A stretch of 64,000 bases of DNA from Candidatus Micrarchaeota archaeon (GCA_041694885.1 JBGFRX010000005.1:5291-69290), one strand, 5' to 3'; shown: positions 4,737 through 56,767, counted from the stretch's first letter. Made by a program: numbers and translations. Notes: a model not told the origin generated them from the sequence alone.

Positions 4737-4835
4737 GCTCCCATAGTCTAGGCCGGTCAAGGACATCGGACTCTCAATCCTGCCAAAAGCAGGAAGGGAA
4801 CTCCGAGAACTCGAGTTCAAATCTCGATGGGAGCG
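4737..4835 (+). tRNA. tRNA-Glu(CUC) carrying a 24-25 nt intron at the canonical 37/38 position of the anticodon loop
   Basis: Acceptor stem GCTCCCA/TGGGAGC + G73. D stem GTCT/GGAC. Anticodon stem TCGGA/TCCGA with loop CTCTCAA interrupted by 'tcctgccaaaagcaggaagggaa(c)', which contains the hairpin cctgc-caaaa-gcagg. T arm TCGAG-TTCAAAT-CTCGA. Upstream T-rich TATA-like 'tttattatt' at about -32; downstream T tract. Confidence 0.65.
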
Positions 4836-19825: not shown

Positions 19826-19967
19826 TTTTTCTTCGCTATTTCTGTTTTTGTTTGGTTAATTTATAAAATACTTTCCCATTCTCAAAAAGGCATTTCACTG
19901 CGATTAGAAATACATCTCATAACACTTTATATAAATGTTTCCTTACATAGAAATATATGTGGGAACA

Positions 19968-21482
19968 ATGGCAATTGCGAAACTTGGCGCATATCCTGAC
20001 TTGAGGCAGCTCAAGACAAAGGCAGTGCAACGGATTGAAACCAACATGAATAGATATTTGGGAAAACCATTCTTCAAATTCTTCGAGAATTTGCCGAAGC
20101 GGCGGCAGAGCGGCAAGAAGAAAAACGGGAAACTGACAGCAGACACGTTCCTGCTCAAAGTCGATGCGAAGCTGGGCGAGGGCGCCATGGACGCAGCAAA
20201 TGCGGCAAGGGGCGTGATAGGAAACCACCTCAAATTATGCCGGCTCGGGAACAAGGAAACGAATAAAATAGATTCCGACCTGGAAAAAATAATCGGCGTA
20301 ATGACAGACGTGCTGACAGCGCGCGAGCTCGGCCTGCTGCAGGTCGTAGGGAACAAGCTGAACCTCAAAGTGATGGACAAGGGCCCTGGCGTCCGCCAGC
20401 TCATCTATTCCGCAGAGCGCGAGGAGGAGGTGCGCGACCTCATTTCAAAATACCGCGTCCCGACTTTTTGGGAGATGGCAAGAGCTGCGCTCAGGCGTAT
20501 ATTGCAAAGTAAAAAAGGACGCGAGGCAACACGGTCAGCAATGGATGGTGCGGTGGGTCCCGAAGCTGCAGAGTCATTGCCCAAAGGAGCAGAAGAAACG
20601 ACAAGCATAATTCCAGGACGCTTCGCCCGGGCAGCGAAAAGAGCAGCTGTTTTTGCAGTTGCAAGTGCCGCTTTTGTAGTGCTTTCTGGGATCATTGCTT
20701 ATATTACATCCCGTTCGTTGGAAGATTATATGCACGAACCAAAGGTAGCTCAGGAGAGCAATGAAGGCGGCAGGCAGCCCTTGCACAAGGAAGAACAGAT
20801 AACTCCAGCAACTCAGCAGGGGAATGCTGGCATAGAAGAAGCCGCGAAGGTGGAAGAGCCCTCGCTGCCGCAGCCAGCCACGCAACCCGCCTCTAAAAGT
20901 CAATTACATCCCAAGGTTTCAGAAGAGCCGGCCAAGGCGAAGATCGAAAAGATGGAAAAGAGCGTTGCGCTCCAAGAGGCGCAAACAAAAAGGCTGGATG
21001 GAGGAAACGAAGTAAAAAAAGCAGTCGCAGATGAAACGCGAAATGCCATGCCTTCGCAGCCGGAGAAAGGAGCGCCTCCTGTGGAAGAATCCAAAGCAAA
21101 AGACGCGGTCAAACCGGAAACGCAAAAAACCGTCCGGACCGAAGAGCGGAAAAAAGCACCGCAGGAAATTCGCGACGAGGAGCGTGAGAAGGCGGAAATT
21201 TACGCGGCGGTGAAGAGTGGGAAGGACTTTATGCACGACCTCAATGAAATGGCGAAGGAGGACGAGGGGCTGCGCACTTTGTACAATTACATAAGGGCTT
21301 ATTTCACAGCGGAGAGTGAAAGCGAAACCGGATTCGTGGCTTCAGCGCACCAGCAGCACCTGGCCGGCTTCATAATCAAAGGAAAAGAGAACGGCGATGG
21401 CATCCAGTTCATGTTGAGGCGGCTCGAACTCACGTACAAAGGAGCTCCGGAAAAATACAAAAAACAACTAAAAAACGACTGA
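19968..21482 (+). CDS. Hypothetical membrane-anchored protein of about 504 aa with a long Lys/Glu/Ala/Pro-rich low-complexity region. The start is moved from 19935 to 19968 because of promoter position.
   Basis: The TATA-like 'ctttatataaa' at 19925-19935 overlaps the first ATG of the tracked ORF, so the Met at 19968 (MAIAKLGAYPDL) fits a leaderless transcript. One TM helix, 'AVFAVASAAFVVLSGIIAYI'. Charged low-complexity stretch at residues 260-430. Confidence 0.45.
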   Translation: MAIAKLGAYPDLRQLKTKAVQRIETNMNRYLGKPFFKFFENLPKRRQSGKKKNGKLTADTFLLKVDAKLGEGAMDAANAARGVIGNHLKLCRLGNKETNKIDSDLEKIIGVMTDVLTARELGLLQVVGNKLNLKVMDKGPGVRQLIYSAEREEEVRDLISKYRVPTFWEMARAALRRILQSKKGREATRSAMDGAVGPEAAESLPKGAEETTSIIPGRFARAAKRAAVFAVASAAFVVLSGIIAYITSRSLEDYMHEPKVAQESNEGGRQPLHKEEQITPATQQGNAGIEEAAKVEEPSLPQPATQPASKSQLHPKVSEEPAKAKIEKMEKSVALQEAQTKRLDGGNEVKKAVADETRNAMPSQPEKGAPPVEESKAKDAVKPETQKTVRTEERKKAPQEIRDEEREKAEIYAAVKSGKDFMHDLNEMAKEDEGLRTLYNYIRAYFTAESESETGFVASAHQQHLAGFIIKGKENGDGIQFMLRRLELTYKGAPEKYKKQLKND

Positions 21483-24400
21483 TATCAGAGCCTCGATTTC
21501 CGAAACTATCTCCTTTTCCTCATCGCTGAGCGCATCGCTCTTCTTCTTCCATTTCTCCAGTTCCGCTTTTGTGATGTAAACGAGGAGCGCATCGCCTTCC
21601 CTCACATCGCTGCCAAGAATTATCTCATCAACTGAAATGGCGACCTGCGTGCCCTTCTTTGCCTCCGCAAGCGATTCTTTCTCCTTCTGTATCGTTTTAA
21701 CTTCGCCCAAGACCCTTCCATCCAGGTTCATGAGGCGCACATGTGGCCTTAATTTTCCGGCAAGAACTTCCACCCCGAAAATAGCCGGCTTACTCACGCG
21801 GAAGAAACAATTGGGTAGCGCCCTTATGCGGCAGGGCCAGGACATCTTCTCAAACACCTGCTTTTTTTCCCTTTCCCTTTCCTCCGCCTTCCATTCCTCG
21901 TACCTGTCCAGAAGCTGATAGACAATATTGCTGTAGATTATCTGCGCTCCTCCTTCGTCCCCTGCTGTCTTTGCATCAGGAAGCACCTGCACATTGAACG
22001 CGAGCACAGCGCCTAAATATTTGTCCTGCGCAGCAACCGTCGCAGCGAGCAGCGCGTCTCCTTTGGTTACATTGCCAACATTCGCCGCCTTCACCGGTAC
22101 GTTCGCATCCCTGAGGAGCTTGACTATCGCCTCCACGCTGCCCAAGCTATCCGCCTTCACCACCACTCCCAAACCGGCGCTCTCGAAAATTATCCCTTTC
22201 ATGTGCGCCTCTATCTCCTTCCTGTCTTTTTCATAGTTCTTTGCGACAATGAGAGGGGAGCCGCTCACCGCATCCTCGAGTCCGGGAGCTGCGATTTTTA
22301 CTCCTGCAGCAGCCACGAGCCGCTCCGCCTTCCTGAACTTCTCCTTTGCGCCTCTTATGTTCGGCTCGAGCAGCGCGCGTATTTTGGTTTTCTTCACTCC
22401 TGCTCTGGAGAGGAACACAATTTCGTCGCCCTCCACGAGTACCCCGTCGTAAATTATGACGTCCACAGTTGGCCCGAGCCCTTTCTCCTCTTTGACCTCC
22501 ATCACGCTGCCTTTTGCAGGGCTTTCGGGATCAACGTGCAGCTCCTTTTCCAGAAATTTCTGGCTGAGCCCTGCTATAAGAAGAAGAAGCTCTGCAAGCC
22601 CCTCGCCCGTCTTCGCGCTCACAGGCACTATCCCGACTTGCTTCGTGAAATTCTTTACCCTGTCAAAACGTTCGGAATCGAAGCCGTATTCGGAAAGTTT
22701 CCCCATCAACCCGTATATCCTTTCATCAACATTGTTTTGCGTACTCTCTGACTGCTTTGCGAGCGATTCGAGGAACGACTCCGTTGCCTGCGATTTCCAT
22801 CTGTCAACCAGATCGACCTTGTTCGCGGCGATGATGAAGGGCGTTTTCGCGTTTTTCAGTATCCTTATGCTCTCTATGGTTTGGGGCTGGAATCCCTGTG
22901 CAATATCCACTACGACTATCGCCATGTCTGCTATGCTTCCCCCCCTCTCACGCAGATTCGTGAACGCCTCGTGGCCCGGCGTGTCTATGAAAAGTATGCC
23001 CGGAACCATGAGCTTTATTTTCATCCTTTCCGCTACTGGTTTGGAAACCGCCTCTATATTCTCGCGCGCCACATAGCTCGCGCCTATCATCTGGGTTATC
23101 CCACCTGCCTCCTTCCCCGCCACACCGGTGCCCCGAACTGCATCGAGAAGGCTGGTGTTGTGCGCGAAAATCCGGTCTGCTACGAAATTGTGGTGCTCCG
23201 GAACCGTGAAATCGTAGACGTAGTCTTTGGATTCGGCATGAACAATTTCCGAAATGCGCACTGCCTGCACGTCCGAGCCGGAGCAGAAACGCGAAATGTT
23301 TTGGAGGCGCGCACGAACGAGTGCCCGGCACTTTCCGGAGTTCGCGCAAAAGTCCGCACCCGTAGCCGTTAGCGAGAATTGCCCATTTTTCATTTTCACG
23401 AGCCCATCCGAATAGAACGACCGGAGTTGATTCACCGTCCAGACCCAGGGAAGCCCGCTCTCTGCCGCAGCTTCTTTTGAGGATAGCGGCCGGCATTTTA
23501 GGGATTTGAGCAGCCGGATTTTCTTTTTCAGAGCGTTGCGGTATTCGGCCGAGGACAAAAGGCGCGTGAGATTTTCCTTAAATGAAGACAGGTATGCCCT
23601 CGAAACAAACGGATATTCCTCGTACTTGCCCTGATAAGGTATTCCGACCTCCATTTTCGCAAGACCAGGCAGATTTCGGATTTCTCTGATGCTGGCGCCG
23701 CTTATGGGGCTAATGTCGCTGTTCCTGTTCGTGCGGGCCTTTTTTAGGAAACGCTCCAGTCTCGCCCCTTTCTTCAGGGACCTTATGGGAATCGCCCTGC
23801 GGAATTTTTCAATGTCCTCGATTCCGCTTATTCTTAGGCTGTAATATCCATTCTTGGAGTAATAAGCAGCCCTTATGCCGAACCTCAGGAGCGCCAGGGA
23901 AAGGTCCTCAACAAACAGTCTGCTCGCGCTCGTAATCTCGAGCGCGCCCTGGTTGCTCGCATAGCCGTCGGTGTCGAATACGCCGGCTATGAAATTCGCG
24001 AGCAGGGAGTCGTCACCTGTCTTCACAAGGTCCGGAATTCGGATGGTCCGGCTTTTTTGCCTTGCGGGAAAATCGAAAATCTCGTTGAGCATGCGGTTGA
24101 GCGTCCTGCCTCCCCTGTGGATGGCCGCTGTGACTGTCCGCTCGCGCCTGACCACGACCTGTACTCCGAACGCTTTCTTCATCGCGTCCGCATACGCAGA
24201 CAGTATCTCCGGGTCGTTCTTGCACAGCTTCGCGACGCCGCCCACGCCGTCGCCGAAAAGCAGCCCGAGCGCATACCCAAGTTCATCCCGCAATTGCGGC
24301 ACAGGGAGCCAGGGGCCCGTGTGCCCTGCCCTCCACTTGTGGGTGGAATTCTTCAATTCGGTCATTTTCCTCACTGAAGCACCACGGGTGCGCGGAAGCC

Positions 24401-25271
24401 AGTGTTGTTCACCAATAGGCATGGCTTCAGTTGTCCATGAGAACGGCGCTCCGTTCTGGGGGTACAAAGAACGATGCGTCGTTCTTTGGCATGGGGGAGC
24501 GCACCCTACGCTATCGGGATGTGGCTTCCGCCTAAAGCCATCAATATCGGAAGCCACGGGCTCCTTCAGCTTTGCTGAAGGGATTGCGGACGAAGTCCGC
24601 AGGATTAGCCCGTGGTGCTTCACAAACCCGCACCCGAGGACGCCTCCGGCTGTCCTTAGCTCGGCCATCTGGAATCTTCCGTTGCTCAAGCAGTCCCGGA
24701 ATCCTGCTGGAAAATCCGCTGGATTGGACAGATAGAGGCCGTGCATTCCGGAAGTGAAATCCTCATCATCAATCCTCGCGACGAACCCTTCCATCGCGGA
24801 CAGCCTTTCAAAGAACCGCTTTTCTGCACGGGCTCTCTGAGTTCGGTTTTTTGTGTACCTCGGAGTGAGCACGAACTCTCCTTCCTTCAGAAAACGGCCT
24901 TCCTTCTCGCTGATTCCGCCTGCTTCATTCACTACGAAGAATTTGTGCTCCGGGGTCGCCTTTATCGCGCTGCCGTCGGAGAGCATTACTGACAGGAGGC
25001 TCTGTGTCTGCCTTTTCCAGACGTGGGAAACTCCTGCCTCGACAATCTCGCATTCCTTTGAGAAAGAGTAGAGTTTTGCATTTTCATTTGAGATGTCTGT
25101 AACCCAGCCGTCACCGCACCACTCGCCTTTTTTGTCTGAAGTCAGCATCTCGTAGAGCTCGTCGGCCCTCATAATCCGGCCATCCGGCAACGGTATGAGA
25201 GTGTCTCCGCTGATGCACTTGCCGTGATCGACGTGCCCAAGCACTGCTATTATTGGAGATCTGATAAGCAT
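21468..25271 (-). CDS. infB: Translation initiation factor aIF5B (IF2 homologue), interrupted by a large intein at the P-loop
   Basis: Exteins read 'AVLGHVDHGK|...|TSLLDAVRGT' then G-domain motifs 'DTPGHEAF' and 'NKVD', domain II and the C-terminal domain. Total 1267 aa versus about 590 aa expected. Confidence 0.9.
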   Translation of the reverse strand: MLIRSPIIAVLGHVDHGKCISGDTLIPLPDGRIMRADELYEMLTSDKKGEWCGDGWVTDISNENAKLYSFSKECEIVEAGVSHVWKRQTQSLLSVMLSDGSAIKATPEHKFFVVNEAGGISEKEGRFLKEGEFVLTPRYTKNRTQRARAEKRFFERLSAMEGFVARIDDEDFTSGMHGLYLSNPADFPAGFRDCLSNGRFQMAELRTAGGVLGCGFVKHHGLILRTSSAIPSAKLKEPVASDIDGFRRKPHPDSVGCAPPCQRTTHRSLYPQNGAPFSWTTEAMPIGEQHWLPRTRGASVRKMTELKNSTHKWRAGHTGPWLPVPQLRDELGYALGLLFGDGVGGVAKLCKNDPEILSAYADAMKKAFGVQVVVRRERTVTAAIHRGGRTLNRMLNEIFDFPARQKSRTIRIPDLVKTGDDSLLANFIAGVFDTDGYASNQGALEITSASRLFVEDLSLALLRFGIRAAYYSKNGYYSLRISGIEDIEKFRRAIPIRSLKKGARLERFLKKARTNRNSDISPISGASIREIRNLPGLAKMEVGIPYQGKYEEYPFVSRAYLSSFKENLTRLLSSAEYRNALKKKIRLLKSLKCRPLSSKEAAAESGLPWVWTVNQLRSFYSDGLVKMKNGQFSLTATGADFCANSGKCRALVRARLQNISRFCSGSDVQAVRISEIVHAESKDYVYDFTVPEHHNFVADRIFAHNTSLLDAVRGTGVAGKEAGGITQMIGASYVARENIEAVSKPVAERMKIKLMVPGILFIDTPGHEAFTNLRERGGSIADMAIVVVDIAQGFQPQTIESIRILKNAKTPFIIAANKVDLVDRWKSQATESFLESLAKQSESTQNNVDERIYGLMGKLSEYGFDSERFDRVKNFTKQVGIVPVSAKTGEGLAELLLLIAGLSQKFLEKELHVDPESPAKGSVMEVKEEKGLGPTVDVIIYDGVLVEGDEIVFLSRAGVKKTKIRALLEPNIRGAKEKFRKAERLVAAAGVKIAAPGLEDAVSGSPLIVAKNYEKDRKEIEAHMKGIIFESAGLGVVVKADSLGSVEAIVKLLRDANVPVKAANVGNVTKGDALLAATVAAQDKYLGAVLAFNVQVLPDAKTAGDEGGAQIIYSNIVYQLLDRYEEWKAEEREREKKQVFEKMSWPCRIRALPNCFFRVSKPAIFGVEVLAGKLRPHVRLMNLDGRVLGEVKTIQKEKESLAEAKKGTQVAISVDEIILGSDVREGDALLVYITKAELEKWKKKSDALSDEEKEIVSEIEALISVVF
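23157..25217 (-). mobile_element. 687-aa intein with LAGLIDADG homing-endonuclease domain, inserted after GHVDHGK of aIF5B
   Basis: Starts 'CISGDTLI' and ends 'FAHN' before extein Thr. LAGLIDADG blocks 'LGLLFGDGVGG' and 'FIAGVFDTDGYAS'. Confidence 0.85.
24374..24621. other. Highly structured, compositionally aberrant in-frame insert inside the intein linker, bracketed by a perfect 14-bp long-range inverted repeat
   Basis: 'tgaagcaccacggg' (24374-24387) is the exact reverse complement of 'cccgtggtgcttca' (24608-24621). Internal hairpins: gaagcca...tggcttc, gaacgg-cgct-ccgttc, tggcttccg...cggaagcca, cttcagc-tttg-gctgaag, gcggac-gaa-gtccgc. The encoded peptide segment is P/H/R/W/T-rich low complexity. 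Confidence 0.5.
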
Positions 25272-25350
25272 TTAAGACACCTAATGACATCATGTAAGAT
25301 AGGGATGGATATATTTTAATTGAGTTGCGAGCGGGAAAAGGGATTCAGGC

Positions 25351-26364
25351 ATGGCGAAAGTCATAATTCCGAAAGATGCTCTGCCTCGCTGGGAAGCGGG
25401 CTACGGGATAATCGGAAACCATTCAGGAATACAGATATGCACCTGGACGAAAAAAGCCCTAAGGGGAAAGGGCGTATGCTACAAGCAGAAATTCTACGGC
25501 GTTGACTGCCACAGGTGCGCCCAGATTTCCCCTGCGCTCGCGTGGTGTTCGGAGAATTGCATATTCTGCTGGAGGCCGAACGAATGGATGCAGGAGACGC
25601 GGCTGAAGAATGACGGGGTTGACGAGCCATCGAAAATAATCGCAGGGGTTCTGGAAAAAAGGAAACGACTCATTTCAGGGCTCAAGGGCGCCCACGATGC
25701 GAGGAAGGACTTGTGGAAGGAAAGCTTCGACCTTTTTCCGTCGCACTGGGCAATCTCTCTTTCAGGCGAGCCCACCCTTTACCCAAAACTGCCCTGGATG
25801 ATAAAAGAATTGGGAAAGCACCCTGAAGTGAGGAGCATCTTTTTGGTCTCGAACGGCCAGGAGCCCAGGATGATTCTGAAATTGAAAAAGGAGAAGGCGC
25901 TGCCCACGCAACTCTACATAAGCGTGGATGCGAGCGATGAAAAAATGTTTGCGAAAGTAAACCGGCCGAAATACAAAGACGGGTGGAAGCGGCTTATGAA
26001 AACGCTTTCCCTTCTTCCGAAACTCGATTGCAGAACTGTGCTGCGCTACACGCTCATCAAAGGAGTGAACGATTCCGAAAATGAAATGGAAAAGTTCGCC
26101 AGGATATTTGAAAAGTCAAAGGCTGATTTCATTGAGATAAAGAGCTATATGTTCCTGGGCGACTCGAGGAAGCGGCTCGTTTTTGAAAATATGCCTAAGC
26201 ACCAATACGTGAAGGAATATTCTGAAAAAATAGCAGGATTTTTGCATAATTACAAAATAATGGATGAGGACGAGCTCTCCAGAATAGTGCTGCTGAAGAG
26301 AACCGGTTCGCCTTATGAAAACACGATAAAAAAATCGAAAGCGGAAAAGCGGCTTCAGATATGA
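25351..26364 (+). CDS. taw1: tRNA 4-demethylwyosine synthase (TYW1/Taw1), radical SAM
   Basis: Radical-SAM 'CSENCIFC' plus an additional N-terminal Cys cluster 'CYKQKFYGVDCHRC'; length and C-terminal region typical of archaeal Taw1. Confidence 0.75.
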   Translation: MAKVIIPKDALPRWEAGYGIIGNHSGIQICTWTKKALRGKGVCYKQKFYGVDCHRCAQISPALAWCSENCIFCWRPNEWMQETRLKNDGVDEPSKIIAGVLEKRKRLISGLKGAHDARKDLWKESFDLFPSHWAISLSGEPTLYPKLPWMIKELGKHPEVRSIFLVSNGQEPRMILKLKKEKALPTQLYISVDASDEKMFAKVNRPKYKDGWKRLMKTLSLLPKLDCRTVLRYTLIKGVNDSENEMEKFARIFEKSKADFIEIKSYMFLGDSRKRLVFENMPKHQYVKEYSEKIAGFLHNYKIMDEDELSRIVLLKRTGSPYENTIKKSKAEKRLQI

Positions 26365-26475
26365 ACGCGCGTCTATATCCTCTCTGTGCAGATAGTAGCG
26401 TAATAAAATTTGCTTAAATGCCCATTTCGCGGGCCACGAACAAATATATAAAAATATTTACTGCAAATCAGTTCC

Positions 26476-27306
26476 ATGAATTCTGGAAAATTTATCTTCG
26501 CGATACTATCTTTCATCTTTCTCTCGGCATTTGTATTGGTTGCCGGCTGCGCGCAACAGCAGCCCGCGGGCGCGAACGAAAGCGCGCCCCTCAGGTTCAA
26601 AGACAGCGCGCTCGTGGACTACATACTTATCGTGGAAATACCCGATAGCGCAGCAAACGGAAGCAGGAAAGCGGTATACGATACGTCCATCGGGGCAATT
26701 GCTAGAGAGAACGGCATCTACAATGAAAAAAGGGCATACGGGCCGCTTGCAGTAGAAATGCAGAACGACAACGGCCTTCTTCCAGGATTCACCCGTGCGC
26801 TTGTCGGGATGAAGGAAGGCGAAAACAAGACGTTCACACTGAACCCGGAAGAGGGCTATGGCATTTACGATTCCAGCAAAGTATTCTCAATAAGCCGGTT
26901 CTATAACATGAGCAGGTACGAGGACATTCCGCTCGCGTATTTCGAGATGAGAAACCTTTCCAGTGCGATCGGCACAAACCTTTCGGGCAAGTTGGGCGTT
27001 GCGCAGGTCGTAAACTCCACGAACGAAACAGTTACGCTGAAATATTTCCCTGCAGAGAACACCACGTTCGTGTTCAACGGGCTTCCACAAAGAGTCGTTT
27101 TCTTTGACAACGACAGCATACTGATCGAGATAACCGTGCAGCAGGGAACGAAATACATAACTGAATCACCTTCAGGGGATAAGTTCAGCGTTATTGCAAC
27201 AGCGATGAACGAAACCGGCATAATGTTCGACGCGAACAACCCCCTCGCAGGCAAGGAGCTCACATTCACGGTGTTCGTGAGGAAAATAGGGAAAGCGCAG
27301 GAGTGA
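26476..27306 (+). CDS. Secreted or lipid-anchored FKBP-type peptidyl-prolyl cis-trans isomerase with C-terminal extension
   Basis: Signal/lipobox 'LVAGCAQQ'; FKBP core 'GLLPGFTRALVGMKEGENKTFTLNPEEGYG'. Confidence 0.55.
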   Translation: MNSGKFIFAILSFIFLSAFVLVAGCAQQQPAGANESAPLRFKDSALVDYILIVEIPDSAANGSRKAVYDTSIGAIARENGIYNEKRAYGPLAVEMQNDNGLLPGFTRALVGMKEGENKTFTLNPEEGYGIYDSSKVFSISRFYNMSRYEDIPLAYFEMRNLSSAIGTNLSGKLGVAQVVNSTNETVTLKYFPAENTTFVFNGLPQRVVFFDNDSILIEITVQQGTKYITESPSGDKFSVIATAMNETGIMFDANNPLAGKELTFTVFVRKIGKAQE

Positions 27307-30300
27307 GTGGTGGAAGAATGACGGACAAGATAAGGAAAAGGGACGGAAGTGTAGTTGCGTTCGACGCTGGCAAGATAAAAGAGGCAATATGGAAGGCAGT
27401 GCAGGCGGTCGGCGGAAAGGACATGGAGGAATCGGACAGGACCGCTGAATTCGCGGTTAAGCTCCTGAACGAGAAATTCGCCAAAGAAATACCTTCAGTA
27501 GAGGATATACAGGACATCGTGGAAAAGGCGCTCATAGAGCGCGGGCATGCGACCACTGCGAAGGCGTACATACTCTACAGGCACAAAAAAAGCGTTGAAC
27601 GGGAAGTTAAGGGCATAATGGGCGTGAAGGATGACCTCAAGCTCTCGCTCAATTCCATACAGGTCCTGGAGCGCCGCTACCTACTCAAGGACGATTCAGG
27701 AAAGATAATGGAAACACCTGGCGGGATGTTCAGACGGGTCGCGAAGTTCATCGCCTCAGGGGAAAAGGCGTTTGGAGGGGACGAAGAGACGGTGAAGGAC
27801 TTCGAGGAGGCGTTTTACGAGGCGATGATAAAGCTGGAATTCATACCCAATTCCCCGACACTGATGAACGCAGGAACAGGGCTCGGCCAGCTCTCAGCAT
27901 GCTTCGTTCTCGGCGTCACGGACGACTTGGACGACATATTCGAGACAGTGAAGAACACTGCATTGATACACAAGAGCGGTGGAGGCACCGGCTTTTCCTT
28001 CTCTTATCTGCGCCCCAAGGGCGACTTCGTGAAAAGCACTGCCGGCGTGGCGAGCGGACCAATTTCGTTCATGACCATCTTCGACGTGGCGACTAACGTG
28101 GTAAAGCAGGGTGGCAAGCGCAGAGGCGCGAACATGGGCGTGATGGAAATATGGCATCCTGACATCGAAGAGTTCATCACAGTGAAGCAGACGCCGGGCG
28201 TGCTCGAGAACTTCAACATCAGCGTGGGTGTGGACAACAGGTTCATGAAGGCGCTCGAAGAGGATAGCGAATATGACCTCATAAACCCAAGGACCGGCCA
28301 GCAGGTGAGAAAGGTGAAGGCAAAGGGCCTGTTCAACCACATCGCCTATTCCGCGTGGAAGTCAGCAGAGCCAGGCATTCTTTTCATGGACACTATAAAC
28401 AATGCCAATCCAACTCCAAAAGAAAGGATCGTTGCGACTAATCCTTGCATTTCAGGAGACACGCTTGTGTGCACGAACGAAGGGCTCGTAGAGGCGTCCA
28501 AGGTACACAATCCTCACCACGTAATCGGCTCCGACGGCAAATACCACCCTGTGCGCTGGGCTGGCCAGACCGGGGAAAAGGAGCTTTTCCTCGTGAAGAC
28601 GAATGCGGGCTACGAAGCCAAGGCAACTGCGGAGCACAAATTCCTCACTGAAGGCGGATGGAAAGAGGTGCGCGAACTAACTTCCGAAGACCGGCTTGTG
28701 CTCCAGAAACAAGGAAAATTCGGAGCAATGCGCATTGACAGGGAGATGGCGCTCGCGCTCGGCTGGCTTGTTAGCTGCAACCATATGTCCAAAGACGCAC
28801 AGGACGTGATATTTCATTTCGGGGAAGAGGAGAAGGCGGAGCTCCTCCCTGTGTTCAGGGAATATTTCGACCGCATAAACGGAGTGAAAGTGAAGCCGCA
28901 GAAAAGCAGGACAGGAACGCGGCTTAAATATTCGTCCAAAATAGCTGCGAAATTCCGTGAATTCGGGTTCATGCACCTCAAAGCGCGCGAGAAGGAAGTG
29001 CCTTCAGCTGTCTTTTCAATGAACGAGGAATCAGTGGGGAATTTCCTTTCCGCATTGTTCGGCGCAAGCGGCTCTGTGCAAAGCAACAGCGAAAAGGAAG
29101 TAAGCATACGCCTCTCATCCAGCTCCATCAAGCTGCTCAAGCAGGTGCAGGTGCTTCTCCTTCAGTTCGGCATCGTTTCCAGGGTGTACGAAAGAAGGCG
29201 GGGCGGGCATGCGAAAATCCTTCCTGATTCGAAAAGACAAAGCAAGGAGTATTCATGCAAGGCCCAGCACGAACTGATGATAAACAGGGCGAGCATGTTC
29301 CTGTTCATGAACAAGGTTGGTTTTGCGGTTTCATCCAAAAACGAAAAATTCGCGGAGCTTAAGCCCAAAAAGGCATATTCGGATGATATGGATAGTTCGG
29401 TTGCCTCTGTCACGAGCGCAGGATTCGCGCCTGTATACGACCTCACCGAGCCGCAAACGCATTCATTTTCCGCGAATGGCCTCATAGTGCATAATTGCGG
29501 CGAAGTCCCGATGCCCAATTATGAGTCATGCAACCTCGCGAGCATAAACCTCGCGAAATTCGTGGAAATCGACTGGAGCAGGAGCGACTGGAAAAGGAAG
29601 ATCAACTGGAAGCGCCTGCGCTACATAGTCCGGCTCGGCGTGCAGTTCCTCGACAACGTCATCGAGCTGAACAAATACCCGATTCCGAAAATAAAGGAGA
29701 AGACGCTCTACAACAGGCGCATAGGGCTCGGCGTGATGGGCTTCGCGAAGATGCTCTTTAAGATGGGGATAAAGTACGATTCCGACGAGGCGTTTAGGAT
29801 AGGGGAAGAAGTGATGAAATTCATAACCGAGGAGGCGAGAAAGATGAGCCATGAGCTCGGAAGGGCGCGCGGCTCCTTCCCCGGCTTCGCGGACTCCGTG
29901 TGGGCGAAGAAATACGATGGGATGCGCAATGCGACCGTGACCTCGATAGCTCCAACAGGGACCATTTCGATGATTGCGGACACTTCAAGCGGTATAGAGC
30001 CGGTGTTCTCGCTCGCGTACGTGAAGATAGTGATGGATGGCACCCGGCTCTATTATTCAGACGACACGTTCGAGCACGTGCTCAAGGTAAGGGGGCTGTA
30101 CTCGCCAGAGCTGATGCAAAAGGTAATAGAAAGCGGGAGCATCGCAGGGATGGAGGAAATCCCGAAGGAAGTGACGGAAATATTCCGGGTCGCGTACGAC
30201 GTGCGGCCAGAGGCGCACGTGCGCATGCAGGCCGCGTTCCAGAAATACACGGACCTGGCGGTGAGCAAGACCATAAACCTGCCTCCGGACGCCACAGTCG

Positions 30301-30470
30301 AGGACGTGCAGAGCGCGTACATGCTTGCATGGAGAACCGGGTGCAAGGGAATTACCGTTTACAGGGAAGGAAGCAGGGGCGAGGGCGTGCTCGCGAAGGT
30401 CAAGCCAGTTCCAAAGGCAGCGCCTGCTCCTGAAAATCCGAACCCTGTGCAGGAGAGGAACGGACAATAG
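27303..30470 (+). CDS. nrdJ: Adenosylcobalamin-dependent (class II) ribonucleotide reductase with N-terminal ATP cone, interrupted by an intein at the catalytic NPCGE motif
   Basis: ATP cone 'KIRKRDGSVVAFDAGKIKEAIWKA'. Exteins give 'ATNP|CGEVPMP' (NPCGE active site). C-terminal 'TINLPPDATVEDVQSAYMLAWRTGCKGITVYREGSR'. Confidence 0.85.
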   Translation: MSGGRMTDKIRKRDGSVVAFDAGKIKEAIWKAVQAVGGKDMEESDRTAEFAVKLLNEKFAKEIPSVEDIQDIVEKALIERGHATTAKAYILYRHKKSVEREVKGIMGVKDDLKLSLNSIQVLERRYLLKDDSGKIMETPGGMFRRVAKFIASGEKAFGGDEETVKDFEEAFYEAMIKLEFIPNSPTLMNAGTGLGQLSACFVLGVTDDLDDIFETVKNTALIHKSGGGTGFSFSYLRPKGDFVKSTAGVASGPISFMTIFDVATNVVKQGGKRRGANMGVMEIWHPDIEEFITVKQTPGVLENFNISVGVDNRFMKALEEDSEYDLINPRTGQQVRKVKAKGLFNHIAYSAWKSAEPGILFMDTINNANPTPKERIVATNPCISGDTLVCTNEGLVEASKVHNPHHVIGSDGKYHPVRWAGQTGEKELFLVKTNAGYEAKATAEHKFLTEGGWKEVRELTSEDRLVLQKQGKFGAMRIDREMALALGWLVSCNHMSKDAQDVIFHFGEEEKAELLPVFREYFDRINGVKVKPQKSRTGTRLKYSSKIAAKFREFGFMHLKAREKEVPSAVFSMNEESVGNFLSALFGASGSVQSNSEKEVSIRLSSSSIKLLKQVQVLLLQFGIVSRVYERRRGGHAKILPDSKRQSKEYSCKAQHELMINRASMFLFMNKVGFAVSSKNEKFAELKPKKAYSDDMDSSVASVTSAGFAPVYDLTEPQTHSFSANGLIVHNCGEVPMPNYESCNLASINLAKFVEIDWSRSDWKRKINWKRLRYIVRLGVQFLDNVIELNKYPIPKIKEKTLYNRRIGLGVMGFAKMLFKMGIKYDSDEAFRIGEEVMKFITEEARKMSHELGRARGSFPGFADSVWAKKYDGMRNATVTSIAPTGTISMIADTSSGIEPVFSLAYVKIVMDGTRLYYSDDTFEHVLKVRGLYSPELMQKVIESGSIAGMEEIPKEVTEIFRVAYDVRPEAHVRMQAAFQKYTDLAVSKTINLPPDATVEDVQSAYMLAWRTGCKGITVYREGSRGEGVLAKVKPVPKAAPAPENPNPVQERNGQ
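28446..29495 (+). mobile_element. 350-aa intein with degenerate LAGLIDADG blocks, inserted at the RNR catalytic Cys
   Basis: Starts 'CISGDTLV' and ends 'IVHN' followed by the +1 Cys of NPCGE. Blocks 'LALGWLVSCNH' and 'GNFLSALFGASGSV'. Confidence 0.8.
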
Positions 30471-30504: not shown

Positions 30505-31929
30505 TCAGTCCGCACACTCAATTATTTCCCTTATTATTTTCTCCACTTCCTTCGCGTCCACAGTTCCCTGCGCTTTCCCCAACACCTTTCCAACCAAAAA
30601 GAAGATGGATTTGGCATTTCCGGCTTTATAGTCCGCAACAGCTTTCCGGTTCTCCTTCACTGCATCTTCGCATGCCTTCCTGAGCGCGCTGGCATCGGAG
30701 CTCTTCAGCAGCCCCAAATCACCAGCTATGTCGTGCGGCATCTCCTTGAGTTCAATATAGCTGCTGCTTTCCCGCACCTTGACCAAAACATCACTATCGA
30801 GCATCCTTATCAGTATCATGTCCGCTGCCCTGTCGGTAATTTTTCCGGATGAAAGCATCCCGTAAAGCTCTCCAAGGTGCTTTCCGTTCAGCCCGCTGCT
30901 CCTGAATAGAAGGTTCCGATAATTGAGCTGCTTTCTCAAAGGTCCCCGCATCCAGTTTGCCAGCTTCTGCGGCTCGAATTTTCCTGATTTCGCAAGCAAT
31001 TCGTAAACGTCGGCGAATTCCCTTTCAATTACCAATACTACTGCATCAACAGGAGTTATCCCGTAATCTTTCGCAATGCGTTTCGCCCTGTCATCAGGCA
31101 ATTCCGCAACCTCTTCCCCGGCGGTTTTCCATTCAACAGCAGAAACGACGAGTGGAGGAATGTCCGGGTCAGGCACGTACCTGTAATCATCAGCCGTCTC
31201 CTTTTTCCTGAGCCGCACAGTTATTCCACTGTTCTCGTCGAAGTGCCTTGTTTCCTGCGTTATCCTTGCACCCTGCTCAATCTGGGTTTTTTGCCTCTTC
31301 AGCTCGAAAGAGAGCGCATCATATACGTTTGAAAAGGAGTTGATGTTCTTTATTTCCACCCTTGCACCCTCCCCGATACTCACGTTCGCATCTATTCTCA
31401 TCGTTCCCACTTCGTCCTTTATCGCGTTGAAATAGCGCAGATACCATTCGAGCTTACCCAAAAACTCCTTCGCGTCCTCAGGACTCCGCATGTCCGGCGC
31501 AGTGACTATTTCCACGAGCGGGACCCCGCTTCTGTTGTAATCGACAAAGCCCTTCCTGAGCTCGTACCTTCCCGGATCTTCCTCGAAATGCACCTCCCAG
31601 ATCCCGATCCCATTGAGCGTTCCGCGTTTTGCCACCGGCTTTGAGGTGCGCTGGTAGCCCGAAGGCAGATCAGGGTAAAAATAGTGCTTCCTCTGAACGA
31701 AAATTTCCTTTTCGAGCTCGGGCTCAGCGCCGAGCATTTTCGCAATCCTCAGGACATGCGAAAGCGCCTGCTTGTTCACTGCCATGGGCTTTGCTCCGGG
31801 CTGACCGGTGCATATTGGGCAAATATTCGCGTTCGGCTCAGCATGCCCGTAGTTCGTTGGGCACTCGCAGAACATTTTCCCTTCACTGTTGAGCTGGACG
31901 TGGATTTCGAGCCCTATTACTGCGTTCAT
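30505..31929 (-). CDS. gatB: Asp-tRNA(Asn)/Glu-tRNA(Gln) amidotransferase subunit B
   Basis: 'MNAVIGLEIHVQLN...KMFC' start; GatB/YqeY C-terminal domain. Confidence 0.9.
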   Translation of the reverse strand: MNAVIGLEIHVQLNSEGKMFCECPTNYGHAEPNANICPICTGQPGAKPMAVNKQALSHVLRIAKMLGAEPELEKEIFVQRKHYFYPDLPSGYQRTSKPVAKRGTLNGIGIWEVHFEEDPGRYELRKGFVDYNRSGVPLVEIVTAPDMRSPEDAKEFLGKLEWYLRYFNAIKDEVGTMRIDANVSIGEGARVEIKNINSFSNVYDALSFELKRQKTQIEQGARITQETRHFDENSGITVRLRKKETADDYRYVPDPDIPPLVVSAVEWKTAGEEVAELPDDRAKRIAKDYGITPVDAVVLVIEREFADVYELLAKSGKFEPQKLANWMRGPLRKQLNYRNLLFRSSGLNGKHLGELYGMLSSGKITDRAADMILIRMLDSDVLVKVRESSSYIELKEMPHDIAGDLGLLKSSDASALRKACEDAVKENRKAVADYKAGNAKSIFFLVGKVLGKAQGTVDAKEVEKIIREIIECAD

Positions 31930-36384: not shown

Positions 36385-36672
36385 ATGAAGAAATTATCCG
36401 GAGTATGTTTAAATAATGTGTGATGGCGCAGACCTTGCGCATGCTTTACTGACATTGTGTGGCGATGCAGTCAAACGCCGTGGATTGGCCGCAAAAAGGT
36501 TGCGCATGCAACGATGTTTGACGGCATCGGGCGAATGCCACCTGCTTCAGCTGGTTGATGAAACTACTAACCATTGCATTTTTTCTGGTGACGCCTTTGA
36601 GCGAGTGCTGTTGTTTGGCGACGGCACGCAGTCCCTCGACTTCATGAGTCGTGGGTTCGCCACACGGTGTCA

Positions 36673-38079
36673 CTAACGATGCTCCCTTGCATGGCTGTCA
36701 ATTATTTTTGCAACGTTGACAGGATGCATTGGGGGCCTGACCATAGCAACCCTTGCTCTTGTTTTCTCGCCAAAAGGTTCACTTGGAGTTATACATACTC
36801 CTTTTTCATCCACCAACGCTGCGGTCAGCGCATTGCTGTTTACGCCCTTTACATATTCGAGGTAGTGGTAAAATGGGATTTCAGGCTTGCCGAATGGATA
36901 TTCAAGAACTTTGCCATAGCGTTTTTGAAGCCTCTCGATTTCGGTTCCGAACTGCATGCTCCAGTTCGCGAACGTTTTGAAATTCGGCGCAAGTTCCTTC
37001 ATAATAGTTTCGTACTCCTCGTAGTACGGCAATGAAGCATACTGCGTGAGCGTGTTTTCTCCAAGGTACATTGCAAAGGCGGTTCCCAGTGCATCGTGCA
37101 ACGCGTCGTTCACCAGTTTTGCGGTTTTCAATGCGTCCGGTATGTATGGTGTGAAGAAGCCGCCGTGGAAACCAGTTCCCAGCGTTTTGTCTATTCCACT
37201 CATGAAAAGCAGGGGCACGCCGGTTTCCTCGGAGATTTTGAAAAAGTCGATCCTCTGTGCAGAAGGTATGTAATCCCTGTAAATGTCATCAATAATAAGG
37301 AGCACTGCATTTCCAGTTTCCAGCATGTGAAGCTGCAAGCCATCGGCAATCTGTCTGGCCGTTTTCGCCTTTAGTATAGTGCCGGTTGGATTATCTCCAG
37401 ATATAACAACAACAGCGCGCGTATGCTCATCCAGTTTGGAAAGCACTGATTTTACGTCAGGTGAGCCGTTGTCCTCCCCACCTCTTATTCTTTCAGCACG
37501 CTTCACCTCCACACCATACAGAATCAAAATGCCTGCCCATGGTGCATAGACGGGGTTCACACACACAACGTTGCTCTTCAGATTTGATACAAGAAGCCCG
37601 GTGAACTGCAATCCTTCGGTCACGCCATTGACGCCATAAATATTTTTTGGATCGAGACCATATTGTGCCGCAATCGCCCTGCGTAATCGCAGCATTCCCT
37701 GCGAGTTCGTATAAACTATACGAGCAACTTCGCCATTTATCTCCTTTCCATTCAAGACATCGTGAAGAACACTTGTTACTGAGGGTGCACCCTCTATCGA
37801 CTGGTCAATGTGCGTGTTTCCAATGTCGTGGCGCAGTACACCATGCTTTACGCCATCATTGATCCATTCAGTGCCACTGTCCGCGTGTGCCTGCCCTTTC
37901 TTCACTGAGTCGCTTCCGCGCAGCGTGCACTTCGCCGCTTTCTCGAACCTAGAGATATCCAGATTCAACGTGAGCACGCCCGCTTCGCCAAGCTTCTTCA
38001 CTTCTGCGAGCCGTTCCTTGGAACTAAGCTTCAAAAATTGTTCTTTGTTCATAGTTCGTTGCGCCAAATTCATAAACAA
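36673..38079 (-). CDS. Class I/II PLP-dependent aminotransferase paralogue with an N-terminal extension of about 70 aa
   Basis: 'ISGDNPTGTIL' and 'SGIDKTLGTGF' fold signatures; extra N-terminal helical region of unknown function. Confidence 0.6.
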   Translation of the reverse strand: MFMNLAQRTMNKEQFLKLSSKERLAEVKKLGEAGVLTLNLDISRFEKAAKCTLRGSDSVKKGQAHADSGTEWINDGVKHGVLRHDIGNTHIDQSIEGAPSVTSVLHDVLNGKEINGEVARIVYTNSQGMLRLRRAIAAQYGLDPKNIYGVNGVTEGLQFTGLLVSNLKSNVVCVNPVYAPWAGILILYGVEVKRAERIRGGEDNGSPDVKSVLSKLDEHTRAVVVISGDNPTGTILKAKTARQIADGLQLHMLETGNAVLLIIDDIYRDYIPSAQRIDFFKISEETGVPLLFMSGIDKTLGTGFHGGFFTPYIPDALKTAKLVNDALHDALGTAFAMYLGENTLTQYASLPYYEEYETIMKELAPNFKTFANWSMQFGTEIERLQKRYGKVLEYPFGKPEIPFYHYLEYVKGVNSNALTAALVDEKGVCITPSEPFGEKTRARVAMVRPPMHPVNVAKIIDSHAREHR

Positions 38080-55703: not shown

Positions 55704-56461
55704 ATCCTGAAGAATTTCCTGGCTACTTTCACTGCGCCGTGCACTCCCAACATCGTCGGCCTTGCTTCGCCGCATATTTTCCCGTTCCTTAGGGCATTTA
55801 GCAATTCCTTCGGATTTTCGACATCAAATTCCTTCATTTCTATCCAGCATCTTCCGAATTCAAACAAAAGATGAGCGTCGCTTCCAGCGCCTTTCAGCTT
55901 CCTGTTTCTTTCGGCGAATTCGAGTGCATTTGCATTGCATTCCTTTGTGCAGTGGCCGTTCAGCACCTCCACCACATCGACCTTCTTCGCCAATTTTTCA
56001 TCGGAAACACCATGCCTTCTCGCATCATACATGTGCGGAAGGTAGGAAATAGCACCCTGATCCTTTAGCTGGTCCAGTGTTTCAAGGAAGTCCAGCTTGT
56101 CCGGGATCAGTTCGTTCAGGTAAAGCCCTATAAGATCGCCCTGCAGCGTCTTCATTTCCTCCCCAGCTATAAACCTAAAGCCCATTTTCCGCAGCTCTGC
56201 ATGTGATTTGATGTTCCCGTGATCAGTTATCGCAGGAATTATGCCAAACTCCTTCGCCTTCGCAAAAATCTCCCTAAAGCCACAGAGCGAATCAGGAGAA
56301 TAATTTGTGTGCACATGCAGGTCTATCTTCATGCAAATTCCTTTTCTTTTTGAGGTGAATAACTTGGATGTTGTGCTGAGGCGGTTAGTTCGTCTTAGGT
56401 ATTGCGTGACATTTGACTCAGCGGGGTAAACCCTTGCATCCTTGGCGATTGGCAGCGGCAT
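55700..56461 (-). CDS. PHP-domain phosphoesterase. The likely true start is the Met at about 56332 ('MKIDLHVHTNYS').
   Basis: PHP motif 'DLHVHTNYSPDS' and later 'HP..D'. The 43 upstream codons of the tracked ORF run through a structured non-coding-looking region. Confidence 0.65.
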   Translation of the reverse strand: MPLPIAKDARVYPAESNVTQYLRRTNRLSTTSKLFTSKRKGICMKIDLHVHTNYSPDSLCGFREIFAKAKEFGIIPAITDHGNIKSHAELRKMGFRFIAGEEMKTLQGDLIGLYLNELIPDKLDFLETLDQLKDQGAISYLPHMYDARRHGVSDEKLAKKVDVVEVLNGHCTKECNANALEFAERNRKLKGAGSDAHLLFEFGRCWIEMKEFDVENPKELLNALRNGKICGEARPTMLGVHGAVKVARKFFRI

Positions 56462-56661
56462 TTCATCTTCTTTTCAACAGCTCCCTTCTTCATCGCGAAA
56501 GTTGAAAGAAGTTTTTTTTCTGTATCGCTGCCAGGCCCCTTAAAGGCCCTTTATCTAGGATGGACGGAACTTCCTCACCCAAACCGGTTTCCCCCTTCCA
56601 GTTCCGAAACGGAAAACCCGAAAGAGGAAACTTCTGTGGGCGTAGCCACTCCGCCTCAGCA
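56369..56661. ncRNA. Candidate structured RNA of about 290 nt, closed by a 10-11 bp terminal helix; class and strand unassigned
   Basis: 'tgctgaggcgg' (56366-56376) pairs with 'ccgcctcagca' (56651-56661). Internal helices: ggcagcg...cgctgcc enclosing cttcttttcaac/gttgaaagaag, and ttccg-aaa-cggaa. It sits in a 435-nt gene-free gap. Confidence 0.35.
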
Positions 56662-56767
56662 AAAATAATTGCTCTTTTCGCCTTTATATAATGCGCAGTC
56701 GTTCTGGTACGAATTCAGGATTTCCTCATCCCAGCGAGTTCGCAGATTAAGACATTTTTCAGCGAAT

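Follow-up and report, generated by a model that had tools for sequence, protein, structure and literature searches.

An intein-bearing aIF5B gene in a Micrarchaeota genome

We analyzed a stretch of 64,000 nucleotides from a Candidatus Micrarchaeota archaeon (GCA_041694885.1, JBGFRX010000005.1:5291-69290), hereafter the window, in which the gene for the translation initiation factor aIF5B is interrupted by an intein that itself contains a short, strongly palindromic DNA element. A preliminary description of the locus, made from the nucleotide sequence alone, had drawn attention to this part of the intein. Coordinates are counted from the first nucleotide of the window, and the features on which the analysis rests are the following:

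21468..25271, minus strand: aIF5B (translation initiation factor IF-2/5B) gene, 1267 aa, from the open reading frame (ORF) call, Pfam and the homologs P0001-P0003
23157..25217, minus strand: intein of 687 aa, residues C19-N705, then T706
24375..24623, plus strand: palindromic repeat inserted in the intein, 249 nt (83 codons), aIF5B residues 217-299
24282..24374, minus strand: conserved intein sequence, residues 300-330 (RKMTELKNSTHKWRAGHTGPWLPVPQLRDE), not part of the insert

Pfam matches in the aIF5B product comprised GTP_EFTU, IF-2, GTP_EFTU_D4, a split Intein_splicing domain (residues 26-705; PF14890) and LAGLIDADG_3 (PF14528). The intein is located in the P-loop (GHVDHGK/C...AHN/T, with slashes at the splice junctions). 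Its splicing blocks are intact (C19, T106xxH109 and HN705/T706) and both LAGLIDADG motifs are present (LLFGDG and VFDTDG), so that domains, blocks and motifs all agree with the 687-aa LAGLIDADG intein named in the preliminary description. The solved archaeal inteins matched by this protein were those of the V-ATPase (7qsu and 7qss), PI-PfuI (1dq3) and PI-PkoII (2cw7). Used as a protein query, the intein retrieved only five relatives, three of which are aIF5B inteins with 44% (P0001), 34% (P0002) and 39% (P0003) identity over the local alignment.

Residues 140-216 of aIF5B (about 24624-24854) lie in a region of about 100 extra, mostly helical and poorly conserved residues. This region is situated between the N-terminal splicing blocks and a KNSxxKWRAGHT motif, and it is found in the intein and its three homologs, the solved V-ATPase inteins being without it. 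The element landed in this variable region.

The insert is absent from homologous inteins

The preliminary description had assigned the foreign segment to positions 24282-24635. This interval extends about 93 nt too far toward low coordinates: residues 300-330 (...KNSTHKWRAGHTGPWLPVPQ...) are conserved in the three homologous inteins, with K307, N308, S309, A315, G316, H317 and P325 invariant in all four proteins. Alignment to other aIF5B inteins, which the same description had proposed as a check, showed that about 83 residues are missing from P0001, P0002 and P0003 at exactly the position of the element, with the flanking motifs aligning on both sides. We therefore take residues 217-299 as the foreign part, because the homologs are without them and the residues that follow are conserved. 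The foreign segment coincides with the domain bounded by an inverted repeat, and the similarity among the window copy and two further copies, L014 and L007 (see below), stops exactly at window positions 24371 and 24623. The sequences adjoining the element are ...TTTCCTCAC and AAACCCGC..., the direct joining of which would give an empty-site junction. The alignment supports the view that the segment is a lineage-specific insertion in the aIF5B intein. Throughout, the plus orientation of the element is that with a conserved TCAC flank on its left, which is antisense relative to aIF5B.

The element recurs at unrelated intergenic loci

Two further copies were identified:

L014, on contig JBGFRQ010000144.1 of GCA_041695005.1, with the ORF P0127 at L014:82-255 (plus strand): second copy, intergenic, about 120 nt upstream of gyrA
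L007:738-888, in the Micrarchaeota metagenome-assembled genome (MAG) TCF170221_bin_394: third copy, 151 nt, intergenic

An exhaustive search of protein representatives with the insert peptide led to P0127, a 57-aa ORF (E 2.9e-10); P0128, from the same search, is a low-complexity repeat protein and was dismissed as spurious. At the nucleotide level, L014:103-255 is 96% identical to window positions 24623-24523 plus 24428-24371. The L014 copy thus corresponds to the intein copy minus its central 94 nt, and the junction lies in a repeated GAAGCC/GGCTTC motif, which points to a repeat-mediated core deletion. Another contig of the same assembly, L002 (JBGFRQ010000118.1), is 100% identical to window 24530-27235, and P0127 and GyrA are also found on a 71.7-kb contig of a second assembly, which has the window proteins on a 71.1-kb contig. 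GCA_041695005.1 therefore represents the same organism as the window, and two copies occupy unrelated loci in it; for L014 this assignment assumes MAG binning, with two independent assemblies carrying both loci. Contig L002 ends at window position 24530, inside the element and beside the point at which the intein and L014 copies diverge (24523-24529). This end looks like a repeat-induced assembly break, and the aIF5B gene call is truncated there to 247 aa.

The third copy lies 11 nt past the stop codon of an RNase HI gene (the stop ends at 726 and TGAAGC starts at 738 of L007). It agrees with the window copy at every position of its left 30 nt (tcacTGAAGCACCACGGGTGCGCGGAAGCC) and of its right 21 nt (100% identity), and the two share the internal blocks GGAGCGCACCC, GTGGCTTCCGCCTAAA and GGAAGCCRCGGGG. 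The orthologous RNase HI loci of three relatives of L007 (71-79% protein identity) bear no trace of the element, so the L007 copy is an insertion too. On sequence evidence, the element is a member of a family with at least two copies in the source organism and one in a Micrarchaeota MAG.

BLASTN, nhmmer and fuzzy searches for the terminal inverted repeats (TIRs) found no other copy in the 64-kb window. Phage and plasmid collections yielded nothing relevant, and viral contigs gave no match to three patterns. In genome contigs, the TIR-pair pattern had no match, and the pattern of an exact 26-mer from either end retrieved L007 and seven bacterial chance matches. The sole TIR-pair match in metagenome contigs, L001 (JAANCK010737411.1), was rejected as a chance match and a contig-end palindrome artefact: its positions 1-330 form a near-perfect long palindrome of a gene start, an assembly fold-back artefact.

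The element is the most structured segment of the window

A perfect 14-bp inverted repeat (14/14 complementary) closes a domain of 248 nt. The preliminary description had recognized both the repeat and the domain, with coordinates that were one base too low (the true arms are 24375-24388 and 24609-24622), and had counted at least five perfect local hairpins inside it; we found at least six, of 7-10 bp. The parts of the intein copy and their fate in the other two copies are as follows:

24375..24388, no strand assigned: left TIR TGAAGCACCACGGG, 5'-TG terminus, identical in all three copies
24609..24622, no strand assigned: right TIR CCCGTGGTGCTTCA, CA-3' terminus, identical in all three copies
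24395-24401/24422-24428, 24440-24446/24451-24457 and 24465-24474/24479-24488: hairpins 1-3
24521-24530/24548-24557, 24563-24570/24574-24581 and 24585-24591/24595-24601: hairpins 4-6
24386..24506: helix GGGTGCGC (24386-24393) / GCGCACCC (24499-24506), enclosing the left-hand domain; in the window copy and L007, 3' strand deleted in L014
24395..24428: hairpin GAAGCCA/TGGCTTC; GAAGCCG/CGGTTTC in L007, that is, one compensatory change and one G.U
24429..24522: central 94 nt, missing from the gyrA-upstream copy L014
24435..24491: 57-nt double-hairpin module, window copy only; absent from L007 and within the 94 nt missing from L014
24521..24557: 10-bp hairpin GTGGCTTCCG/CGGAAGCCAC whose 17-nt loop opens with CCTAAA; retained in L007, degraded in L014
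24563..24601: a pair of perfect hairpins, CCTTCAGC/GCTGAAGG and TGCGGAC/GTCCGCA; in the window copy and L014, absent from L007
24371..24374, plus strand: conserved left flank TCAC, within CTCAC in the window and TTCAC in L014 and L007; candidate target or transposon-adjacent motif

The minimum free energy (MFE) of 24360-24640 is -133 kcal/mol on the plus strand (z -6.9) and -126.8 kcal/mol on the minus strand (z -6.1), and none of 200 dinucleotide shuffles folds as well. After correction for GC content, this segment ranks first on both strands when the 64 kb are divided into 911 overlapping windows of 280 nt. Those that follow it in excess of structure, at 36401-36680 (plus), 31641-31920 (plus) and 56421-56700 (minus), reach GC-corrected z values of about -3 and have no Rfam match at the gathering threshold; the first of them lies mostly in the spacer (36385-36672) between two aminotransferase genes. 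Within the element, the GGAAGCC/GGCTTCC motif occurs four times and alternative pairings are possible; the 5' arm of the 24521-24557 hairpin, for instance, can also pair with 24392-24401. In the double-hairpin module, CCATG/CATGG brackets a pair of perfect hairpins that are related to each other (24440-24457 and 24465-24488).

Comparison of the three copies separates a constant frame from a variable interior. Common to all are the 14-bp TIRs, the TG...CA termini, the left flank (T/C)TCAC and the right end ...GCTTCAC. The TCAC of the left flank thus appears a second time where the element ends on the right (24620-24623), overlapping the right TIR, and the right flanks beyond 24623 differ (CAAA, CAAG and CCCT). 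The helix GGGTGCGC/GCGCACCC and the hairpin GTGGCTTCC/GGAAGCCRC are shared by the window copy and L007 and are lost or degraded in L014. The latter folds better on the other strand (-79.8 versus -72.3 kcal/mol), while the window copy and L007 slightly favour the plus strand; by counts of G.U versus A.C and by MFE on each strand, the bias is inconsistent among copies. The added hairpins are perfect Watson-Crick palindromes. Because of these palindromes and the inconsistent strand bias, we regard the structure as palindromic at the DNA level rather than as that of a strand-specific RNA.

The insert is in frame with the intein

The codon usage of the insert is non-coding-like. Its codon log-odds amount to -0.27 bits/codon, against +0.44 +/- 0.16 in other genes, and none of 1024 equally long windows is as low; P, H, R, W, S and T are over-represented in the peptide. 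The aberrant composition noted in the preliminary description was thus borne out, as was the open frame: the insert is in frame and stop-free, whereas only 5-6% of 83-codon shuffles of matched composition are free of stops. Measured from TGAAGC to TTCAC, the copies are 249 (window), 149 (L014) and 151 nt (L007) long, and only the genic one is both divisible by 3 and open in its own sense frame; L007 has no open frame at all. The joint chance that a random insert would be in frame and open is about 2% (one third x about 0.055). Since aIF5B is an essential gene and the intein must be translated to splice, only a sense-stop-free insertion of 3n nt could persist. The earlier idea of a foreign structured insertion that survived through its open frame is supported by the three copies.

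Across the element, two of the six frames have no stop: the sense frame and one on the antisense side, which gives rise to a spurious 254-aa ORF at 23971..24735 (plus strand). Spurious ORFs from the stop-free frames of the element also reach public gene calls, as with the 57-aa P0127. Neither open-frame peptide contains a Pfam domain, and a word-indexed protein search with both gave no match. An AlphaFold (AF2) model of the intein, built from a 4-sequence alignment, is weak overall (mean predicted local distance difference test, pLDDT, 56.6). In this model the endonuclease domain reaches pLDDT 70-88, and residues 220-297 have values of 23-31 and no secondary structure. The insert would be compatible with a disordered loop, the model not being strong evidence.

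Comparison with known repeat families

[quoted passage not shown] Like the present element, RPEs are short (about 100-250 bp), palindromic, repeated and non-autonomous, and they are found in intergenic regions as well as in frame and stop-free in functional ORFs, at sites compatible with protein function. The likeness is functional only, the RPE host being an alphaproteobacterium and that of the element an archaeon. RPEs have dozens of genic copies, against one genic copy among the three known here. In addition, the segment of the host ORF that received the element is itself selfish, an intein, and the extra peptide would never be part of the mature protein.

Among archaea, the transposase-free repeats of Haloquadratum walsbyi have been classed as MITEs, as palindrome-associated transposable elements (PATEs) derived from IS200/IS605, and as small mobile repeats (SMRs) (PMC3119063). 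SMRs have inverted terminal repeats (ITRs), no duplication, a strong target preference and a route of mobilisation described as unknown (PMC3119063). They are the closest category, as the element shares the inverted terminal repeats, the missing target duplication, an apparently strong target preference and the size (about 110-250 bp). With PATEs and IS605-type elements it shares the absence of a duplication, a conserved 4-5-nt left-flank motif matched by a similar one at the right end, palindromes in the interior and a repeat-mediated core deletion; deletions of the core between short repeats have been described for PATEs (PMC3119063). Insertion is motif-adjacent and duplication-free at all three loci, as in PATEs, but these by definition are without terminal inverted repeats and the element has perfect 14-bp ones. 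In its lengths (249, 149 and 151 nt, below about 600 bp), its lack of transposase coding and its TIRs, the element agrees with MITEs. However, classical MITEs usually make target duplications and match known IS ends, and neither was seen at the three loci. The likeness to the haloarchaeal families is one of description and probably not of sequence, the host being DPANN/Micrarchaeota-like.

TTCAC is a documented transposon-encoded motif (TEM) of IS200/IS605 elements, reported for ISGst2 (PMC10055086). The element resembles this group in its insertion directly 3' of (T/C)TCAC, its TTCAC end, the lack of a target duplication and its folded single strands. It differs in that its ends pair together instead of forming separate subterminal hairpins, and in that no tnpA or tnpB was found in the window, L007 or L014.

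A probable mobile repeat nested in an intein

Taken together, these data make it quite likely that the segment is a short, non-autonomous, palindrome-rich MITE-like element inserted in frame in the intein. The in-frame MITE-like insertion was one of the explanations put forward in the preliminary description, and the copies in the same organism and in a Micrarchaeota MAG, both intergenic, speak for it. The landing site would be a dispensable linker of low conservation that connects the Hint splicing domain with the LAGLIDADG endonuclease domain. The 83 extra residues would be translated as a probably disordered loop and removed together with the intein by protein splicing, and mature aIF5B would thus be unaffected.

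Mobilisation would occur in trans, by a transposase encoded elsewhere, and two routes can be considered, to which we give roughly equal weight. The first would be of the IS200/IS605 'peel-and-paste' type, relying on the transposon-adjacent motif (TAM) and the TEM, or similar to that of the haloarchaeal small mobile repeats, which have ITRs and are duplication-free. The left flank, invariably (T/C)TCAC, would fit, as would the TTCAC at the right end, the missing target duplication and the reliance on folded DNA; IS200/IS605 elements, however, are normally devoid of TIRs. In the second, a DDE transposase would act on the TIRs, a route suited to perfect TIRs that end in TG/CA, but the target duplication is missing.

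Several observations weigh against a mobile repeat. No conventional target-site duplication was found at the three copies (n = 1-10, including shifted TNA/TCAC boundaries), and no transposase or autonomous partner is encoded in the 64-kb window (46 ORFs) or in L007 and L014 (6 ORFs). Only three copies were found: among 185,579 GTDB species representatives, the exact 26-mer from either end matched one archaeal genome, once. An empty-site allele from a close relative is not available, the nearest intein homolog being 44% identical, and it is an inference that the insert is translated and that the intein can splice. Finally, between the window copy and L007, the helices show one compensatory and three G.U-compatible changes on the plus strand, which could hint at a constraint acting on RNA or single-stranded DNA.

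A more far-reaching version, which we hold to be doubtful, is that the family represents an undescribed class of DPANN mobile repeats whose invariant scaffold works as a folded single strand and for which inteins are safe harbours. The scaffold would consist of the end-to-end helix, the alternative GGAAGCC/GGCUUCC pairings and the TTCAC boundary motifs, and it would serve as an IS200/IS605-like substrate of single-stranded DNA transposition or as an omega-RNA-like guide scaffold. If so, inteins would let transposable elements colonise essential genes without cost to the mature protein.

The same compensatory changes could also be taken as the mark of a structured non-coding RNA gene family or of a structured RNA that is mobile, for instance an IS200/IS605 remnant bearing an omega RNA, one copy having come to lie antisense in the intein ORF. 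The very strong predicted structure would suit such an RNA, as would the asymmetric conserved flanks (5' TCAC, 3' C) and the pattern of divergence, in which two genomes agree fully (100%) at the ends and in several internal blocks and differ elsewhere by indels resembling those of hairpin tips; moreover, PATEs often encode omega RNAs (PMC10055086). However, the covariation between the two sequences cannot be distinguished from that of shuffles (221/500), and no Rfam family matches even at E<=10. Helix P2 has been lost and hairpin C degraded in L014, which folds better on the opposite strand, and the added perfect Watson-Crick palindromes are typical of events at the DNA level. The three copies show no consistent orientation to neighbouring genes, the intein copy has no AT-rich promoter-like box upstream, and the element is not syntenic in relatives. 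We therefore consider an RNA gene improbable, and the structured RNA nested in the intein that the preliminary description had also envisaged does not agree with the missing Rfam match, the inconsistent strand bias and the loss of helices in one copy.

Rfam scans covered the whole window at the gathering threshold, where only two tRNAs were found, and 24100-24800 and L007:600-1050 at E<=10, where only noise appeared (sn3071, mir-1258 and Pab19); identities as RNase P, SRP, 5S or H/ACA RNA were rejected on this basis. The sn3071 match, at 24722-24774 (minus strand), is a weak C/D-box snoRNA-like one (17.9 bits against a gathering score of 40, E 0.81). Its AUGAUGA box is in sense orientation within the intein ORF, and the match is probably noise.

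That the segment is a disordered linker or small domain which evolved in place as a lineage-specific part of the protein, its nucleotide structure being incidental, would account for its open frame and its position in a variable intein linker. Yet the same nucleotide sequence also stands in two spacers between genes, where it is out of frame or interrupted by stops. The codon usage is non-coding-like, there is no Pfam match and no protein homolog except the spurious ORF over another copy, and the folding z of -6 to -7 is unmatched elsewhere in the genes of the window. The intergenic copies effectively refute an evolved linker, which had been the remaining proposal of the preliminary description, and we regard it as very improbable.

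Least probable of all are an intervening sequence at the RNA level, such as a bulge-helix-bulge (BHB) intron, and an RNase P-like RNA in reduced or permuted form. Both ends are joined by a long closing helix, and GGAAGCC and GAGCGCACC superficially recall the CR-I and P12 of RNase P, but the RNase P resemblance mentioned in the preliminary description found no cmscan match at E<=10 (nor did SRP or any other Rfam family match), the motif order is incompatible, L014 is without half of the 'core', and an intron need not be in frame, yet of the three copies the genic one alone is. The BHB motif consists of a 3-nt bulge, a 4-bp helix and a 3-nt bulge. When both strands of the window copy and of L007 were inspected by hand, along with MFE folds, the closing stem was an uninterrupted one of 14 bp whose flanks (UCAC.../...CAA and UUUG.../...GUGAGG) cannot form the central 4-bp helix, and a BHB intron was rejected.

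Other features of the window

Two genes downstream of aIF5B, the ribonucleotide reductase gene (27303-30470, plus strand) also carries a LAGLIDADG intein (Intein_splicing and LAGLIDADG_3, roughly residues 380-731), so that the window contains two intein-bearing essential genes within 6 kb. Convergent with aIF5B, a 515-aa K/E/A-rich ORF without a Pfam match (19935-21482, plus strand) overlaps that gene's 3' end by 15 nt. One of the Rfam tRNA matches, at 4737-4835 (plus strand; 49.7 bits, 99 nt), was not reported by ARAGORN and is probably an intron-containing archaeal tRNA.

Implications for inteins and archaeal repeats

By analogy with in-frame insertions of the RPE/MITE type, the case would otherwise be a variation on a known theme, and we see it as a neat instance, in essence ordinary, of a selfish element lying within another one. 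A full-text search of one literature library returned no report of a MITE inside an intein, which is absence of evidence and not proof of novelty. The locus would comprise three nested layers of selfish DNA, with a repeat element in a homing-endonuclease intein in an essential gene, and would provide a natural example of reading-frame selection filtering transposon insertions. The copies would also make up a previously unannotated repeat family in the poorly studied DPANN/Micrarchaeota genomes, where such repeats break MAG assemblies and create spurious ORFs. More generally, inteins may be neutral landing pads for mobile DNA, as whatever splicing tolerates is discarded post-translationally.

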